Below, one piece after another: positions 3,341 through 15,749 of a DNA stretch of 15,749 bases. Position numbers and translations under genes: made by a program. Origin of the DNA: a virus. The stretch lies in UHGV virus genome UHGV-0120055; one strand, 5' to 3'. How positions within the stretch are numbered: position 1 is the stretch's first letter; each line of letters opens with the position of its first letter. Below the pieces are notes generated by a model. That model searched no databases, had not been told where the DNA came from, and saw only the letters and a list, made by a program, of their open reading frames with translations.

Positions 3341-3467
3341 TTTGTTCTCCACGTATATGCACTGCACCGCGCTGAATTCTGGTAAAAGGAAGCCCTCACC
3401 ATTCGGTGATTATTGAGTTAATTACGTTTCCATAAATGCCCCCGCAGGGGCATTTGCAGTAATGAAA

Positions 3468-4292
3468 TCAGGCGGTGAAAGTACCAATAAAGGTTTCTAC
3501 TTTGCTGTCTTTGAATTTCTCAACAAGCAGATCACGAAATTCGTTAGCCATTTCTTCCTGCACCGCTTCCAGCTGAATAATGCGCAGAACCAGTACAGGA
3601 CGATCGCCAGTGATAATGCTGAGGCGTAATTTAAACGGACGTTCTTTCAGACCTTCAAACGGAACGCATTTAAATTCAAATGCCACTGGCATAATGTCTT
3701 TGGTCTTCGCTTCGACAGACTCCATCAGGGAGCGTTTGCCGCTGAAGTCATTATCTTCAAAATCAGCGGTCTGGTTCGCTTCAATTGTGATTTTACGGAT
3801 CGCCGCAGCCGCTTTGGTTGCCTGAATGGCGTCACCATTAGCATCAAAGCCCACAAGGTAGTCGGCCCAGTCTTCAATCCATTCTGCTAGTGACTTCTGG
3901 GAGTTACGCTCGCCGTTAACAGACAACAGGGCAGAGAACGGTGCTGTCTTTTTCAGTTTGAGAGTGGCGGTGTTATCTGCGTGACCTGGTTCATCAATAG
4001 TACCCAGGTTAAGCACACTGACTGCTCGCATATTATCGGCATCGATAAAGCAGCGGGTGCCTTCATCTGCAAGATCTTTAGAATAACGGGTAAAGTCATC
4101 GATGCTGGCAGTGGAAAGCGCACCACGGAAACGGAAGCGATTTAAATTAAATTTTTCCAGATCATGAATGCGGAAATTCTCAGGCAATGCCACAGCATCG
4201 GCACCAATCTTACTGATAATTTCATTAACACCCTGAGCAGAAATAAGGGCATGGATTTGATTAATTGCGGTTGCGTCTAAGTTCTGAGACAT
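3468..4292 (-). CDS. YfdQ-like phage protein (DUF2303-type)
   Basis: 274-aa ORF; ATG 4292 with GAGGA SD (rc of 4299-4303). Assigned by recollection of the yfdP-yfdQ-yfdR arrangement in E. coli CPS-53; not verified by search. Confidence 0.6.
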
Positions 4293-4357
4293 AATAAGTC
4301 CTCACTATATAAAGATATTCAGTGATGAGATAAATAATCAGTTAATTAAGAACGATA

Positions 4358-4720
4358 TTAATGACCTGCTGCGCGGAGTTTTCCGTCAGGTTCACCGGCA
4401 AGAGTCAGTAATTGTCCCTGGTCTTCCTGCAGAATAGTCAGGCGACCACCGCGATTGACATACATCGGCGTTTCGGTGGTGTCTTCTTCAGAAATTTTCC
4501 CGCGGTTAGTCGGGCGAACATATGAGAGTTTGTGTTTGATTTTCACACGGTTCTCATCAAATGGTTCGATTTCCAGGTTGAGTGAGACCTTACCTTTGGT
4601 TTTCGTGTTCATCACACCGGAAGCGACTTCACTGAGAACTGCGCCGATTTTGGTTTCAAATACGCCGCCGTCCAGCTCCCCGATAAATGCCTGCACATCA
4701 GTACTGCGTTCGCTAGCCAT
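4358..4720 (-). CDS. YfdP-like hypothetical protein (120 aa)
   Basis: Track ORF 4358..4951 trimmed to ATG 4720-4718 (MASERSTDVQ...) with GAGGAG SD (rc of 4727-4732); the upstream extension is low-complexity and overlaps the structured leader. Confidence 0.6.
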   Translation of the reverse strand: MASERSTDVQAFIGELDGGVFETKIGAVLSEVASGVMNTKTKGKVSLNLEIEPFDENRVKIKHKLSYVRPTNRGKISEEDTTETPMYVNRGGRLTILQEDQGQLLTLAGEPDGKLRAAGH

Positions 4721-4768
4721 TTTGCTGCTCCTCATCATATCGACCCTGCAAGGCCGATTAGTTTCTCC

Positions 4769-4903
4769 ACAAAACAGAGAAGAACACCTGCGGTGGCTGC
4801 CGCCCGGATGGATTGGGTTATGAGCCCGTCGTCCGGTGATGCTCTTCTCTGTTTTGTAAAAAGAGCGGTACCAGCCGGAAGCAAGGGTACAAACTGGTAC
4901 CGC
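4769..4903 (-). promoter_or_regulatory. structured pL-leader RNA element: boxA-like motif between two long hairpins (candidate nut/put-like site)
   Basis: Perfect 15-bp inverted repeat 4769-4783 / 4843-4857 (59-nt interior); perfect 10-bp inverted repeat 4865-4874 / 4894-4903 (19-nt loop); minus-strand CGCTCTTTTTACAAAAC (rc of 4851-4867) resembles the boxA consensus CGCTCTT(T)A. Confidence 0.3.
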
Positions 4904-5314
4904 CAAAGCAGTGGCTGTTGTGGTGGGGTTGTCACTCAGGCGTATGGTCAACCTGACAATCCGGTGTCCTCAACGGGGAAAGAGTAACCCCGCCATACTT
5001 ACCGCCGCGCCATTTCGCGGATTACCACAACGCTGAGAGCACTTAGCCAGTTACGGCACCACACTTTGTCGCGGCTCCATAAATGCCCTCATCGTTGCAC
5101 CCTGGTCTCTTCCCAGGCGTCAAACCGAATCGCCACGCTGGTTAGGCGTCTTATCAGCATCATCATTGACTTGCACATTCCGGCTACCTGGTTTGTTTGC
5201 CCGAGCAAGGAGTGGATTGTCCCCTTTAACGTCCCCAGACCGCTAACGACGCATGTGCCATACGCCGTGTTACAACCAAATTTTGTTAGTACCTTGTTTG
5301 TTTGTCTGGAAAGA

Positions 5315-5367
5315 AAGATAAAATGAAGTTGCGCATTATGCAAGTGTTTTTGTTGCGAGATATGCAA
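5315..5367 (-). promoter_or_regulatory. OL/pL-like region: two 15-bp operator-like sites overlapping a leftward promoter
   Basis: TTGCGCATTATGCAA (5329-5343) and TTGCGAGATATGCAA (5353-5367) share the pattern TTGCG-N5-TGCAA with the OR site at 6136-6150. Candidate minus-strand -35 TTGCAT (rc of 5338-5343) and -10 TATCTT (rc of 5315-5320) at 17-bp spacing. Confidence 0.4.
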
Positions 5368-5380
5368 TTTAAAGGGTAAT

Positions 5381-5402
5381 GAAAAGCCACCTTTGGGTGG
5401 CT
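5381..5402 (-). terminator. putative intrinsic terminator downstream of the repressor gene
   Basis: 7-bp stem AGCCACC/GGTGGCT with a 4-nt loop (5385-5402), followed on the minus strand by UUUC AUU; about 20 nt after the repressor stop. The U-tract is short. Confidence 0.35.
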
Positions 5403-5422
5403 AATTGATGAGGAGGTAAGGG

Positions 5423-6115
5423 TTAATTGTGTCGCTTAATGGTTTGTGACTGGCTGATTAAGACCTTTCCAAAGACCATAAACCGGTGTTCATTTTCGCT
5501 GGTAATTCCCCATTCACGGTAAATCTGGTTATCAGAAATCACCAGTAGTTTGTCAGGTATCATTTGCAGTCGTTTGACATAAATTTTATCATCAAAACCA
5601 AATACATAGATACCATCTCCATCAAACTGATTGATACTGACATCAACGAAGATGAGATCTCCTGGCTCAATGGTTGGACACATACTGTCCCCACGAACGT
5701 TGATAACTTTAATGTGATTGGCTGGCCGTCCACCAAACATCGATACAGCATTATCAGTTCTGTATTCAATGGCATGAATCACATCAATGACATCACCGCC
5801 CTGGATAAGGCCATTTCCCGCACTGGCACTGACATCCAGCATTTCAATACGGAATACATCCTTCACCTGCGCAACATCCTCACTAATACTGTTTTTACAT
5901 ACAGTATTACTTTTGAAGTCTGAGGTAAAGAGATCAGCAATATCAACACCTAAGCTCTTGGCAATATTACTCAGGGCTTGTTCAGTGAATTGTTTCTGCT
6001 TACCTGTTTCCAGGCGTGAGATATTCGCCGCATCCACTCCTATTGCTTCAGCGAGATCGGCGATTTTCATGTTCTTCGCCTGGCGAAGTTGTCTGACTCG
6101 GTTTCCTATGTTCAT
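5423..6115 (-). CDS. CI-type prophage repressor (HTH_XRE N-terminus, S24 LexA-like autopeptidase C-terminus)
   Basis: N-terminal HTH (KIADLAEAIGVDAANISRLE), Ala-Gly cleavage-site candidate (SASAGNG), Ser/Lys dyad context (RGDSM ... VKRL). ATG 6115 has no SD and sits 7 nt from a -10-like hexamer, consistent with a leaderless transcript as for lambda cI from pRM. Confidence 0.85.
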   Translation of the reverse strand: MNIGNRVRQLRQAKNMKIADLAEAIGVDAANISRLETGKQKQFTEQALSNIAKSLGVDIADLFTSDFKSNTVCKNSISEDVAQVKDVFRIEMLDVSASAGNGLIQGGDVIDVIHAIEYRTDNAVSMFGGRPANHIKVINVRGDSMCPTIEPGDLIFVDVSINQFDGDGIYVFGFDDKIYVKRLQMIPDKLLVISDNQIYREWGITSENEHRFMVFGKVLISQSQTIKRHN

Positions 6116-6212
6116 GCGTTTATTACATTTCTTTATTGCGCGTTAAGCAAATCAACTTGCGCAAAATATTTGCGTGAAATAATATGCTCATCACGCAATA
6201 TGTGGAGGTTAT
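6116..6212. promoter_or_regulatory. OR-like region with divergent promoters (pRM-like leftward, pR-like rightward) and operator half-sites
   Basis: Rightward: -35 TTGCGC (6157-6162), 17-bp spacer, -10 TAATAT (6180-6185), then GGAGG SD and cro ATG at 6213. Leftward: -35 TTGCTT (rc of 6145-6150), 17-bp spacer, -10 TGTAAT (rc of 6122-6127). Operator-like TTGCGCGTTAAGCAA (6136-6150), palindrome TTGCGCAA (6157-6164), weaker ATGCTCATCACGCAA (6184-6198). Confidence 0.5.
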
Positions 6213-6473
6213 ATGCAATCACCATTACGGAATGTGCGTAAGGCGCACGGATTTACTTTGCAGCATGTTGCTGCTGGCGTTCAGGTCAATCCAGCGACGC
6301 TGAGTCGTATTGAAAGACTGGAACAAATTCCATCTATCGATCTTGCAGAACGTCTGGCCAATTTTTTTAAGGGTGAAATCAGCGAAATGCAGATTCTTTA
6401 TCCGGCACGTTTTCAATCTAGCCAAAACCAGAATGGGTTTAAACCACAGGAACAGGAGGTAAGCCGTGGGTAA
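6213..6473 (+). CDS. Cro-like HTH_XRE regulator
   Basis: 86-aa ORF diverging from the repressor; HTH (FTLQHVAAGVQVNPATLSRIE); GGAGG SD at 6204-6208. Confidence 0.75.
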   Translation: MQSPLRNVRKAHGFTLQHVAAGVQVNPATLSRIERLEQIPSIDLAERLANFFKGEISEMQILYPARFQSSQNQNGFKPQEQEVSRG

Positions 6474-7017
6474 TCATCACTGGAAAGTGGAAAAACAGCC
6501 TGAGTGGTACGTGAAAGCTGTCAGAAAAACCATCGCGGCGTTGCCAGGGGGTTACGCTGAAGCTGCTGAGTGGCTGGATGTTACAGAGAACGCTTTATTC
6601 AACCGCCTTCGTGCAGATGGCGATCAGATTTTCCCGCTGGGATGGGCAATGATTTTACAGCGTGCTGCTGGCACTCACTACATTGCGGATGCTGTCGCAC
6701 AGTCTGCTGGTGGGGTGTTTGTATCGCTTCCTGAAATTGAGGAAGTAGAGAACGCAGATATAAACCAGCGCCTGCTGGAAGTCATCGAACAGATCGGGAG
6801 TTACTCAAAGCAGATTCGTTCGGCAATCGAAGATGGGGTAGTGGAGCCACACGAGCAGACAGCAATTAATGATGAATTGTATCTGTCAATTTCGAAGCTC
6901 CAGGAGCATGCGGCACTGGTCTACAAAATTTTCTGCGCTCCAGAAAAGAGTGACGCCCGCGAGTGTGCAGCTCCGGGCGTCGTGGCGTTTTGTGTCTGTG
7001 GAGAAACTAACGCATGA
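6466..7017 (+). CDS. CII-like / CP76-family putative regulatory protein
   Basis: 183-aa ORF directly after cro; GTG start 6466 with AGGAGG SD (6454-6459). Position and size match CII/CP76 or YdaT-like proteins, but the family call is from memory and tentative. Confidence 0.55.
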   Translation: MGNHHWKVEKQPEWYVKAVRKTIAALPGGYAEAAEWLDVTENALFNRLRADGDQIFPLGWAMILQRAAGTHYIADAVAQSAGGVFVSLPEIEEVENADINQRLLEVIEQIGSYSKQIRSAIEDGVVEPHEQTAINDELYLSISKLQEHAALVYKIFCAPEKSDARECAAPGVVAFCVCGETNA

Positions 7018-7162
7018 ACAGTTTAACGGCAAATAACCGTTTGTCGCAACAGCTGGTGGTCAGTGTCGCTGCACACCTGTTGTTACGGCATGAATGCAGA
7101 TTACCAAATCACCTGGCTGTAAGTAACCACAGAGAACTTTACCTGACTGTGGGGGGCGAGTT

Positions 7163-7342
7163 GTGCAGGAACTTAACCGCTGGTTTCGTGACGGAAGAGG
7201 ACTTTATGTTCATGTTATTCGTTGGGAGCCAGAAACACAGCGCGTTATCTATCTTCGCAAAGACTACCCGCATGAGTGCTTTAGTCCTTTGTGGAAATTC
7301 AGGCGTGATTTTGTTGAGTGTGAAGGACCACCAGCACATTGA
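7163..7342 (+). CDS. small hypothetical protein (59 aa, GTG start) in an alternative frame inside long ORF 7014..8165
   Basis: Frame-2 translation VQELNRWFRDGRGLYVHVIRWEPETQRVIYLRKDYPHECFSPLWKFRRDFVECEGPPAH has protein-like composition; a G6 run (7151-7156) lies just upstream and could serve as SD. Below the ORF-track length cutoff. Confidence 0.3.
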   Translation: MQELNRWFRDGRGLYVHVIRWEPETQRVIYLRKDYPHECFSPLWKFRRDFVECEGPPAH

Positions 7343-7619
7343 TTCTGCCATTCCGGGACGTTACACTGTTCAGGCACCTTATAAAGCGGGTGCCGGGATT
7401 GGCGTCCTGAAATTGATTACTGAGCATAACCGCGCTCATGCGGTTTTTTCGTGTCATGAGCATTGCTACGCCCAAATTATGGTGTGGCGTACAGGGCCGA
7501 CTTCGGTCGGGCCGGGTTCGGTAGTCTCCGGTAACGCCAACCCTGTACGTCTCACCACCTCTGTGATTGGCGTCCCATGTGGTGAGTTTTCTAAAAAACT
7601 GACTACCGGGGCTGTCACC

Positions 7620-8165
7620 ATGACTACTCTCCCAACCATCTCTCAACCTGAAATTGCCATCGTTGATGGTCAGGCTGTTACATCTTCTTTGGCTGTTGCT
7701 GACTTCTTCTCTAAACGTCATGACGATGTACTGAAAAAGATCCGCACGCTTGAATGCTCAGCATCATTCACTGCCCGCAATTTTTCGGTGAGTGATTACA
7801 CTGATTGCACAGGTCGCAAACTTCCTTGCTACCAAATCACACGCGACGGTTTTGCGTTTCTTGCTATGGGTTTCACGGGTAAACGTGCTGCCCAGTTCAA
7901 AGAGGCATACATCAATGCCTTTAACCAGATGGAGAAACAGCTTTCAAAGCCCTCTGTACCGAGCGACGTTGCACATAACGCCAGCGTTCTCTATTCCTAC
8001 ATTTCATCAATTCATCAGGTCTGGCTGCAGCAGCTTTATCCCATGTTGGCAAAAGCCGAATCCCCGCTGGCTGTAAGTCTGTATGACCGCATCAACGACG
8101 CGGCGCTACTGGCCAGTCTCATAAATTTGTCGCTGAACCCTTCAGAGGTAAGGGGGCGCAAATGA
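7620..8165 (+). CDS. Rha-family phage regulatory protein (start uncertain)
   Basis: Translation from ATG 7620 (MTTLPTISQPEIAIVDGQ...) contains the Rha-domain signature (KRHDDVLKKI ... YQITRDGFAFLAMGFTGKRAAQFKEAYINAF). The same frame is open upstream to ATG 7014, but those 202 residues are compositionally atypical (see findings). Confidence 0.65.
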   Translation: MTTLPTISQPEIAIVDGQAVTSSLAVADFFSKRHDDVLKKIRTLECSASFTARNFSVSDYTDCTGRKLPCYQITRDGFAFLAMGFTGKRAAQFKEAYINAFNQMEKQLSKPSVPSDVAHNASVLYSYISSIHQVWLQQLYPMLAKAESPLAVSLYDRINDAALLASLINLSLNPSEVRGRK

Positions 8166-13067: not shown

Positions 13068-13820
13068 ATGAACCTTGAAGCCTTACCGAAATATTACTCC
13101 CCGAAATCTCCAAAATTGAGCGATGACGCACCGGCGACAGGCTCTGGTGGTTTAACAATTACGGATGTAATGGCTGCGCAGGGTATGGTGCAGTCGAAAG
13201 CACCGCTTGGGTTTGCCTTATTCCTGGCAAAAGTTGGTGTTCAGGATCCTCAGTTTGCGATTGAAGGTCTGCTCAATTACGCGATGGCACTGGATAACCC
13301 GACATTGAACAAATTGAGTGAAGAAACCCGGTTACAGATCATCCCTTACCTTGTGAACTTTGCCTTTGCTGATTATTCCAGGTCTGCGGCAAGTAAGGCT
13401 CGCTGTGAGCATTGTGCTGGTACTGGATTTCATAATGTATTGCGCGAAGTGGTGAAACACTCCAGAAGCGGGGAATCTGTTATCAAGGAAGAGTGGGTGA
13501 AGGAACTGTGTCAGCATTGTCATGGTAAGGGAGAAGTCAGCACAGCGTGCAGAGGGTGTAAGGGTAAAGGTATTGTCCTGGATGAAAAAAGAACCCGGCT
13601 TCATGGCACGCCTGTTTATAAGGTTTGTGGGCGTTGCAATGGAAACCGGTTTAGCCGTTTACCAACCACACTGGCGCGGCTTCATGTCCAGAAGCTGGTA
13701 CCAGACCTGACGGATTATCAGTGGTACAAAGGATATGCAGATGTCATTGATAAACTGGTTACAAAGTGCTGGCAGGAAGAAGCATATGCAGAGATACAAT
13801 TGAGAAAGGTGACAAGATAA
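13068..13820 (+). CDS. late-gene antiterminator Q (phage 82 / Qin-type)
   Basis: 250 aa with Cys clusters (CEHCAGTG ... CQHCHGKG ... CRGCKGKG ... CGRCNG) and followed by a promoter plus strong terminator; GTGGAG SD at 13055-13060. Family by recollection. Confidence 0.7.
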   Translation: MNLEALPKYYSPKSPKLSDDAPATGSGGLTITDVMAAQGMVQSKAPLGFALFLAKVGVQDPQFAIEGLLNYAMALDNPTLNKLSEETRLQIIPYLVNFAFADYSRSAASKARCEHCAGTGFHNVLREVVKHSRSGESVIKEEWVKELCQHCHGKGEVSTACRGCKGKGIVLDEKRTRLHGTPVYKVCGRCNGNRFSRLPTTLARLHVQKLVPDLTDYQWYKGYADVIDKLVTKCWQEEAYAEIQLRKVTR

Positions 13821-15526: not shown

Positions 15527-15602
15527 GGCCCTTTAGCTCAGTGGTGAGAGCGAGCGACTCATAATCGCCAGGTCGCTGGTTCAAATCCAGCAAGGGCCAC
15601 CA
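15527..15602 (+). tRNA. tRNA-Met or tRNA-Ile2 (anticodon CAU)
   Basis: Hand-folded cloverleaf: acceptor GGCCCTT/AAGGGCC, D-stem GCTC/GAGC, anticodon loop CTCATAA, T-stem GCTGG/CCAGC with T-loop TTCAAAT, discriminator A and encoded CCA. Met versus lysidine-modified Ile cannot be distinguished by eye. Confidence 0.85.
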
Positions 15603-15609
15603 TCACATA

Positions 15610-15686
15610 CCGCCATTAGCTCATCAGGACAGAGCGCCAGCCTTCGAAGCTGGTTGCGCGGGGGGCGGGTCCCCGATGGCGGTCCA
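15610..15686 (+). tRNA. tRNA-Arg (anticodon UCG) with atypical T-loop
   Basis: Acceptor CCGCCAT/ATGGCGG, D-stem GCTC/GAGC, anticodon stem CCAGC/GCTGG with loop CTTCGAA, T-stem CGGGG/CCCCG, encoded CCA. The T-loop is GGCGGGT, lacking the canonical T54/Psi55/A58 positions. Confidence 0.6.
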
Positions 15687-15699
15687 TTATCGGTATTCA

Positions 15700-15749
15700 G
15701 CGTTGTTAGCTCAGCCGGACAGAGCAATTGCCTTCTAAGCAATCGGTCA
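15700..15749 (+). tRNA. tRNA-Arg (anticodon UCU), 3' part truncated by window end
   Basis: Acceptor 5' arm GCGTTGT, TA, D-stem GCTC/GAGC, anticodon stem ATTGC/GCAAT with loop CTTCTAA; the sequence ends in the variable region. Confidence 0.6.

Follow-up and report, generated by a model that had tools for sequence, protein, structure and literature searches.

The 15,749-nt stretch of viral DNA analysed here (UHGV virus genome UHGV-0120055; hereafter the window, meaning the stretch at its full length) is the early region of a lambdoid prophage, and two inverted repeats at 4769–4903 lie between its putative leftward early promoter, pL, and the first leftward gene. The interval is part of a non-coding pL leader of about 590 nt on the minus strand, and the case is slightly better than even that this leader is a series of mobile RNA modules, independent of one another and of a type known from phage tRNA islands. 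The 15-bp repeat forms the base of a long stem-loop (LSL), very probably a tRNA-derived, tRNA-like structured RNA whose basal stem, in lambdoid early-left leaders, is much extended and which there has no CCA. The 10-bp repeat is, judged from its sequence, probably an intrinsic terminator. From 5′ to 3′, the leader consists of a pseudoknotted domain (5272–5092), the long stem H6, a variable domain, a terminator-like hairpin with U5, the LSL, a small hairpin and the ribosome-binding site (Table 1). An earlier account of the same interval, made from the letters alone (the sequence-only reading), had proposed an antitermination leader related to the nut sites of lambda or the put elements of HK022. 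The content of the leader is more unusual than that.

Both repeats pointed out in the sequence-only reading are elements of the minus-strand RNA and are conserved with compensatory changes in dozens of distinct relatives; the folding and homologue alignment that it had proposed as checks both favour the stems. The 15-bp repeat extends to 25 nt at 84% (4769–4793/4833–4857), and in the window the basal stem reaches 4764–4862 (25 bp) beneath a branched apex. The minus-strand segment 4866–4760 folds at −51.2 kcal/mol (z −7.1), a value matched by none of 200 shuffled sequences. The LSL alignment comprised 36 sequences, 35 of them distinct, mutually less than 95% identical. An automated pair scan on a MAFFT alignment was too noisy owing to G/U richness, and both here and in the upstream domain the helices were set by hand and then tested. 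With the basal stem, apical arm and second hairpin so defined, 94.8% of positions are paired; sliding the partners gives 52% at most. Both bases have changed in eight of the pairs (e.g. GC in 19 and CG in 16 sequences, CG in 25 and AU in 7, AU in 30 and GC in 5), and the covariation score was reached by none of 500 shuffles. The second apical hairpin ranges from 14 to about 40 nt across relatives. Because G–U pairs are frequent and a covariance model of the LSL (R2) scores 126 bits on the minus strand versus 44 on the plus strand, the sense of the element is that of the pL transcript.

The apical arm carries GGGCUCAUAACCC, identical to the anticodon stem-loop of the Escherichia coli initiator tRNA: three G–C pairs close the 7-nt loop CUCAUAA, in agreement with the NU-CAU-AN pattern of initiator arms. 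The 77-nt initiator tRNA sequence used for comparison is 100% identical to an annotated tRNA-Met gene, which every one of the 5426 complete E. coli genomes contains about four times, and the 14-mer CGGGCTCATAACCC is common to that gene and the window apex (LSL 14-mer CGGGCUCAUAACCC). Divergent copies found with R2 keep GGG-NN-CAU-AN-CCC. A true tRNA in the leader was considered and rejected, as ARAGORN and the Rfam tRNA model were both negative in 4700–5400.

Copies of the LSL are also found beside tRNA genes. Two (GGGUUCAUAUCCC and GGGGUCAUAUCCC) are encoded in the P1 ban operon, on its sense strand and under the oppositely annotated upl and plp. In our P1 locus (L003), they occupy 5112–5190 and 5362–5483 of the minus strand (70005–70083 and 69712–69833 of the record), between tRNA-Thr and tciA, and the ban leader reads in order: dicF-like, tRNA-Asn, tRNA-Thr, two stem-loops, tciABC, tRNA-Ile, pseudoknotted RNA, ban. 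One copy found with R2 forms the H6 apex in some members of the upstream RNA family (L031, L061; GGGCCCAUAACCC). In Klebsiella phage GZ7 (L268, 1209–1278), a 70-nt copy stands directly after tRNA-Asn and tRNA-Arg(UCU), downstream of Q. It lacks a D arm but combines a 6-bp acceptor-like stem and a long anticodon-like arm (loop CUCAUAA) with a T-arm-like hairpin and an ACCA end, and is not called by ARAGORN. A strong terminator follows it. The terminator and LSL together are present in 2495 of the 5426 complete E. coli genomes (46%), in up to five copies, where they are unannotated or labelled as hypothetical protein; the 15.7-kb window holds a single LSL.

A cis-acting role in the mRNA would account for part of this evidence. 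In such a role, the long stem would serve as a site for RNase III or RNase P and as a 5′ stabiliser and, together with the UGCAG hairpin downstream, would set the translation or stability of the early-left mRNA. The LSL is a nearly perfect duplex of 20–25 bp, 35–45 nt upstream of the Shine–Dalgarno (SD) sequence, and in lambdoid early-left operons it always lies between the promoter or terminator and the first open reading frame (ORF), whatever that ORF is; in relative L233, it directly follows pL. The UGCAG-loop hairpin recurs in relatives on different stems (GGCGGUGGCAGCCGCC, GCGCCGGUGCAGAGGCGU) and before different first genes. The leader of lambda N contains an RNase III site that controls N translation. 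However, a cis role leaves the invariant initiator-tRNA-like apex unexplained, and it fits poorly with copies that are in tandem or far from start codons, within tRNA arrays (P1; GZ7, with a CCA end). The mid-stem mismatch conserved in 23 of the 35 LSL sequences is likewise atypical of a simple RNase III substrate, although not incompatible with one. We regard this explanation as rather unlikely.

The 10-bp repeat (10/10, 4865–4874/4894–4903) is the core of the 13-bp terminator-like stem. Minus-strand 4912–4850 folds at −21.2 kcal/mol (z −3.9; none of 200 shuffles as good) and UCUUUUU follows the stem, so that a stable, G+C-rich hairpin stands directly before a U-run on the transcribed strand, as is characteristic of intrinsic terminators. 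In an alignment with ST64B, phiNP and SfII, the letters of the stem change and pairing is kept (GGCGGUACC/GGUACCGC versus GUCGGCGUC/GACGCCGAC), and the U-run and the ACA after it are invariant; the hairpin is 95% identical to its SfII counterpart. Among 98 distinct relatives, retrieved via a motif in the neighbouring long stem-loop, 95 have a hairpin (median −25 kcal/mol) and T5–7 directly 5′ of the long stem, some in textbook form (e.g. GCCCGC-UUUG-CGGCGGGC then U7). Two further ideas about this region were discarded. A switch in which the segment upstream of the terminator (UGCUGUGUGU) pairs with the 5′ arm of the long stem was dropped, as no consistent subfamily covariation was seen by eye; the two are partially complementary, and the Rfam STnc100 model pairs 4 nt there. 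An AgvB-type anti-sRNA, suggested by the CACAACA motif at 4917–4924, was rejected, as AgvB genes lie downstream of pR′ and are 51–60 nt long.

The pseudoknotted domain, which the sequence-only reading had missed, was retrieved by an exact-motif scan of IMG/VR (at least 120 stretches) that started from the block common to P1 and phiV10. Among the matches listed, there are at least 107 distinct core sequences, 50–100% identical to the window. An independent motif located the domain in 22 species-representative genomes, all Enterobacterales except one contig labelled as a Bacillota metagenome-assembled genome. Covariation was tested for five helices (H1, H2, H4, the pseudoknot and H5) in 53 sequences less than 96% identical. 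The helices are 94.4% paired, compared with at most 53% for slid partners; 14 of the 26 pairs have changed on both sides (123 cells), and the observed values were reached by none of 500 shuffles. H2, for example, varies from UCUGG/CCAGG to UCCACUGAU/AUCAGUGGG, and H6 also has compensatory variants among relatives. The long joining strands are invariant (GGUAGCCGGAAUGUGCAAG; GGCGAU..GGUGUGAC). Other long-range partners of GGUAGCCGGAAUGUGCAAG (the H1 loop GCAC; GGC at 5131–5133) are invariant on both sides, so no covariation signal is possible. A covariance model of the domain (R1) scores 138 bits. The Rfam search that the sequence-only reading had called for returned no family in 4300–6500, either at gathering score or at E up to 10.

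The genomic contexts of the domain are diverse. Half of the copies (75 of 149) occupy the pL leader position, on the strand of a cI-like gene and downstream of it by a median of 155 nt. Another 16 begin immediately behind tRNA-Ile2(CAU), the arrangement seen ahead of ban in P1, and 24 stop exactly where tRNA-Arg(UCU) begins, the arrangement in phiV10. The phiV10-type unit comes with a promoter-like site of its own, and a terminator and a small gene lie after it. Complete E. coli genomes contain the domain in 1638 of 5426 cases (30%). The window has one copy, with none in the pR operon. In L022, two diverged copies (3995–4153 and 4800–4958, minus strand) are about 800 nt apart.

Such a domain at the head of an early transcript could act in the manner of put, as an RNA-only processive antiterminator that binds RNA polymerase, carries it through the leader terminator and replaces N. 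HK022 put is about 70 nt long, has two stems and occurs in both the pL and pR operons (PMC9378689). As the sequence-only reading had stated, no recognisable N gene is present: no N-type family was found among 25 ORFs scanned, N families being diverse. N has likewise been reported as absent from the relatives SfII, SfV and SfIV (PMC3851460) and from the ST64B-like phage LLS, for which a put-like mechanism has been suggested (PMC12315714). In L042, the domain begins almost at the inferred transcription start, as putL does (PMC9378689). Of 135 distinct loci, 85 (63%) have a terminator-like site in the 400 nt downstream of the domain, versus 15 of 135 in the antisense control and 1 of 116 at 1.5–1.9 kb downstream, and an intrinsic terminator in this place, unaided, would block all early-left genes. 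By eye, H1 resembles the lower part of putL stem I, which we treat as a lead only: in H1 (5247–5267), CGGCG/CGUCG followed by AGCG has a G–U pair placed as in lower stem I of HK022 putL (L181, 784–804), where the counterparts are C10–G14/C30–G34 and G38–G40. The covariance models give no homology support to this likeness.

The comparison with HK022 put urged in the sequence-only reading was negative in both directions. After putL and putR had been located by matching the numbering of the cryo-EM paper (PMC9378689) to the HK022 sequence, R1 and an nhmmer profile of the upstream domain found nothing at put. A put model (R3), built from only two sequences, putL and putR, recovered both at 94 bits and, at E up to 10, had no hit in five relatives or in the window. 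Copies of the put type after both pL and pR are not present in the window, which has a single domain and a single LSL. In addition, the domain of the P1 ban operon is 2.3 kb from its promoter with no terminator after it, elsewhere the domain is flush against tRNA genes, where tRNA processing would excise it, ST64B, SfII and L233 keep the terminator and/or the LSL without the domain, and no further strong terminator was seen in the early-left operon. We therefore consider put-like antitermination unlikely. An antiterminator that is new and unrelated to put is given the same low rating, because the domain is also found where no terminator follows (P1) or where tRNA processing would free it (phiV10, P1); this P1 and phiV10 pattern fits a stable, separately acting RNA better than an antiterminator. 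The LSL cannot act on the terminator, since it lies downstream of it. RNA-based antitermination is a possible, if unlikely, role of the upstream domain.

The boxA-like string reported by the sequence-only reading does exist (CGCTCTTTTTACAAAAC, 4867–4851, minus strand), but its interpretation as boxA did not hold. It consists of the last four bases of the covarying terminator stem (GCUC, 3′ strand) and the U-run. CGCTCTT occurs in 36 of the 98 distinct relatives, all of them close to the window, and the canonical GCTCTT(T)A in none; other relatives have CCGTCC, CCGCCC, CCAGCC or GCCGCA before the T-run. A lambda-type nutL, with boxA, a boxB-like hairpin and an unrecognised N-like protein, has in its favour the resemblance of CGCUCUUUUUACAA to boxA and the right position between pL and the first gene. 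It is nonetheless very improbable: the leader has no conserved boxA CGCUCUU(U)A, and the motif is followed not by a 5-bp boxB-type hairpin (short stem, 5-nt loop) but by a 20–25-bp stem with a three-way junction. No arginine-rich N-type protein was found downstream, nor any conserved ORF in the leader.

That the leader is long and untranslated, as had been claimed, is borne out. None of the gap ORFs has a Pfam match and their reading frame is kept in no relative. Relative indels are not multiples of 3 in 278 of 296 cases (94%) in the upstream domain and in 43 of 47 in the LSL, and the reading frame of the conserved 3′ arm of the stem-loop differs between subfamilies. Stop-free frames exist on both strands of the leader, as expected for G+C-rich sequence. 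ORFs 4735–4935 (minus) and 4793–4987 (plus), on opposite strands of one hairpin, match phrog_33599 and phrog_3651 (function unknown), two families that were probably built from mis-annotated RNA sequence. The frame-breaking indels, the subfamily-dependent frames and these matches on opposite strands together indicate that the leader is not protein-coding. The idea that it encodes small proteins (mEp460 gp36/gp37, cdtI orf40; PHROGs 33599 and 3651), for which hypothetical coding sequences annotated on the plus strand and the PHROG matches of both strands could be cited, retains next to no probability in view of this evidence and of the compensatory substitutions at the RNA level.

The leader as a whole (5330–4700) folds better than every shuffle (z −4.5), and blastn against phage records splits it into blocks with independent distributions. 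The block 4721–4925 is common to SfII, SfIV, SfV, ST64B and phiNP, that at about 4909–5031 to other prophages, and 5025–5281 to phiV10-type podophages (83%) and P1 and P7 (79%). None of the matched blocks has an RNA annotation, and some are labelled 'hypothetical protein', on either strand. The variable domain (4917–5031) folds no better than shuffles (z −0.6). It is closed by a tRNA-acceptor-like helix, in which GUUGUGG after H6 pairs with CCACAAC about 100 nt downstream, and it occupies the position of tRNA-Arg in phiV10-type phages. The SfII leader (L128, about 3455–3490, minus strand) starts like that of the window (AAAAUCUGGUUGCAACACGGUG...CAUGUGUCGUAAGCAG); H1 has suffered a partial deletion, and a block with the opposite-strand ORF SfII_36 stands in place of the rest of the domain, so that it looks like a deletion/insertion derivative of a window-type leader. 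In K-12, prophage CPS-53 has kept yfdP and lost the leader, which rules this strain out as a test bed.

Rfam STnc100 (RF02076) was considered as the identity of the domain after H6. It matches SfII at full length, from GUUGUGGUGAAU to exactly the terminator hairpin and U-tract (39.5 bits, E 2e-7), and ST64B at 35.1 bits, both below the gathering score of 47, and it has no match in the window (E up to 10) or in ten other loci. It was rejected, since only SfII and ST64B score, below threshold. The relationship appears to be a partial one, a shared closing helix and terminator. The STnc100 consensus itself looks tRNA-like: UGGUGA...CACCA forms a closing helix, a D-arm-like hairpin follows AAU, and the hairpin CCGGG-AGGCA-CCCGG stands directly before CACCA. 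Other known Rfam families were also discarded, as nothing matched and the Pas small RNAs are near structural or Q genes, not at the pL leader.

Several observations weigh against this reading of the leader and its parts. The apical arm is almost invariant among the retrieved LSL sequences, but the retrieval motif included the tRNA-like loop, so the loop invariance there is partly circular; the copies free of this bias are those of P1, GZ7, L031 and L061 only. The identity to the initiator arm may reflect mere descent from a tRNA gene, and the window LSL lacks a CCA end and has mismatches in two of the five anticodon-stem pairs. For the terminator, a 15-nt loop is long for efficient termination, the run has just five U, and a consensus terminator scanner (loop limit 8) did not call the hairpin. 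A terminator between pL and every early-left gene also requires read-through or antitermination. Further, the modules occur independently, which does not imply one joint function: ST64B, SfII and L233 are without the upstream domain, and in P1 no terminator follows it.

If the leader is a set of tRNA-island modules recruited to pL, induction would first yield a structured RNA of about 450 nt (about 5307 to 4858), mostly ending at the terminator. The terminator would define the 3′ end of this RNA and attenuate entry into yfdP and later early-left genes, which would be expressed through read-through, on transcripts carrying the tRNA-like LSL in their 5′ untranslated region. Because the initiator-like anticodon arm is its conserved feature, the LSL would be expected to work by being recognized as such an arm, as a ligand or decoy for an arm-recognizing factor or as a processing signal. 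Candidate partners are a VapC-type initiator-tRNA nuclease, the 30S P site with IF3, MetRS or a processing enzyme, although any specific target is doubtful. An enterobacterial VapC cleaves initiator tRNA (PMC5175351), and phage tRNAs have been proposed to evade tRNA-targeting defences (PMC10264068). As a speculation to which we give little credence, the LSL could be a phage-made decoy of the initiator anticodon arm, supplied early by pL, or by phage tRNA arrays, which shields tRNA-fMet from VapC-type nucleases or occupies an arm-reading factor, and the upstream pseudoknotted RNA could be another early phage RNA of a new class, unrelated to the LSL.

The prophage is of the SfV/mEp460/cdtI/Stx2c-phage type. 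The cI gene ends at 5423 and has its own terminator (5385–5402). The operator motif TTGC-N7-GCAA has six matches in the window, compared with 0.61 expected. The assignment of pL, with a predicted transcription start near 5307, is inferred from sequence: a TATCTT or TATTTT −10 also follows the operators in relatives L042 and L233, and a consensus promoter scanner did not call the site. The yfdP-like gene is annotated in H7 and in K-12, and is followed by DUF2303/yfdQ and a YfbR-like 5′-deoxynucleotidase. Rfam isrK (59 bits, 7374–7450, plus strand) and C4 antisense RNA (78 bits, 7475–7562, plus strand) lie inside ORF 7014–8165 (383 aa), which is annotated as an antirepressor or transcriptional regulator in relatives. 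A Pfam Phage_ASH match (aa 117–212, nt about 7362–7650), followed by Phage_pRha, covers exactly these two RNAs; either the true gene start lies past them, or the Ash family partly consists of translated RNA genes. The tRNA cluster at 15527–15749 (plus strand) contains a CAT anticodon (Ile2/Met type), Arg-TCG and a third tRNA cut by the window end. Q and a DNA methylase lie upstream of it, an order also found in Stx phages, and its CAT and Arg tRNAs are of the same types as those flanking the pseudoknotted RNA in P1 and phiV10.

Table 1. Positions of leader elements and neighbouring features in the window
Feature	Position	Strand	Details
Pseudoknotted RNA domain ('module C')	5092–5272	minus	
H1	5247–5267	minus	
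H2	5235–5239 with 5187–5191	minus	encloses variable insert with conserved UCCUUG
Invariant single strand	5170–5188	minus	GGUAGCCGGAAUGUGCAAG
H3, variable hairpin	between GGUAGCCGGAAUGUGCAAG and H4 in listed order	minus	
H4	5135–5149	minus	loop YUMACCA
Pseudoknot	5140–5143 with 5123–5126	minus	AACC (H4 loop) with GGUU
H5	5101–5117	minus	loop GAAGAGA
H6, long stem	5028–5097	minus	CAACGAUGAGGGCAU / GUGCUCUCAGCGUUG, variable apex
Variable multi-hairpin domain	4917–5031	minus	closing helix GUUGUGGU (5024–5031) / ACCACAAC (4917–4924)
Intrinsic-terminator-like hairpin + U5	4858–4904	minus	13-bp stem 4864–4904, 15-nt loop, U5 4858–4862
Long stem-loop (LSL)	4769–4857	minus	20-bp basal stem 4838–4857 with 4769–4788; three-way junction on top
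Apical arm CCGG...CCGG	4804–4836	minus	holds GGGCUCAUAACCC (4815–4827)
Second, variable apical hairpin	4790–4803	minus	GCGG-CAGCCA-CCGC; compensatory GC/AU/CG changes
Small hairpin	4741–4756	minus	UGCAG in loop; between LSL and SD
yfdP-like first leftward gene	4358–4733 including SD	minus	ATG 4720, SD GAGGAG 4728–4733, PHROG 204
Putative pL	5315–5343	minus	−35 TTGCAT 5338–5343, 17-nt spacer, −10 TATCTT 5315–5320
OL, two operators	5329–5343, 5353–5367		TTGC-N7-GCAA; same motif at OR 6136–6150
cI-like repressor	5423–6115	minus	helix-turn-helix + peptidase S24
Cro	6213–6473		
CII (CP76) protein	6466–7017		
Q antiterminator	13068–13820		
tRNA genes	from 15527		

Many lambdoid prophages are without N, including the SfV/SfII-type serotype-converting Shigella phages, ST64B, and the cdtI and Stx2c toxin phages. 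The leader described here supplies a conserved terminator before every early-left gene, with a large RNA upstream of it and an initiator-tRNA-like hairpin downstream. The upstream RNA and LSL families are absent from Rfam 15 and from RefSeq annotation, and no description was found in the literature searched; with 30% and 46% of complete E. coli genomes carrying them, respectively, few conserved elements that lack annotation are as widespread in this species. Some copies have been entered as hypothetical proteins, on one strand or the other (P1 upl/plp and two PHROG families among them), and annotation would improve with their recognition. Should the tRNA-like arm prove to be a decoy or ligand, it would represent a new way for phages to handle tRNA-targeting host systems.

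Among known systems, lambda nutL and the N-leader RNase III hairpin resemble this leader in lying between pL and the first gene, in a long duplex before the start codon and, for this one window, in a boxA-like string. They differ in that the string here is unconserved and part of a terminator, with neither boxB nor N. HK022 put, too, is a structured RNA encoded in cis at the start of an early transcript, with a terminator downstream, in a lambdoid phage that lacks N, whereas the domain described here is 180–260 nt long, pseudoknotted, at pL only and also present inside tRNA arrays. STnc100 and PasD, prophage-borne RNAs of unknown function (PMC12370729; bioRxiv 10.64898/2026.05.13.724894), have only the closing helix and terminator in common with the leader.

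GOLLD and ROOL are ornate pseudoknotted RNAs of phages and prophages, of unknown function and often beside tRNA genes (PMC12286853). Their Rfam models have no match in the window at gathering score or E up to 10, and they are 500–800 nt or more in length; the leader RNAs here were confined to Enterobacterales in the searches made. The two groups are alike in being phage-borne, pseudoknotted and tRNA-adjacent. Finally, there are mimics of tRNA anticodon arms in mRNA leaders, of which the thrS operator is an example. The LSL differs from these in copying the initiator arm on a 20–25-bp stem that has no CCA in the window, and on which ARAGORN and the Rfam tRNA model are silent. It resembles them as a leader-embedded hairpin that copies a tRNA anticodon arm, and its counterpart in GZ7 adds an acceptor-like stem and ends in ACCA.

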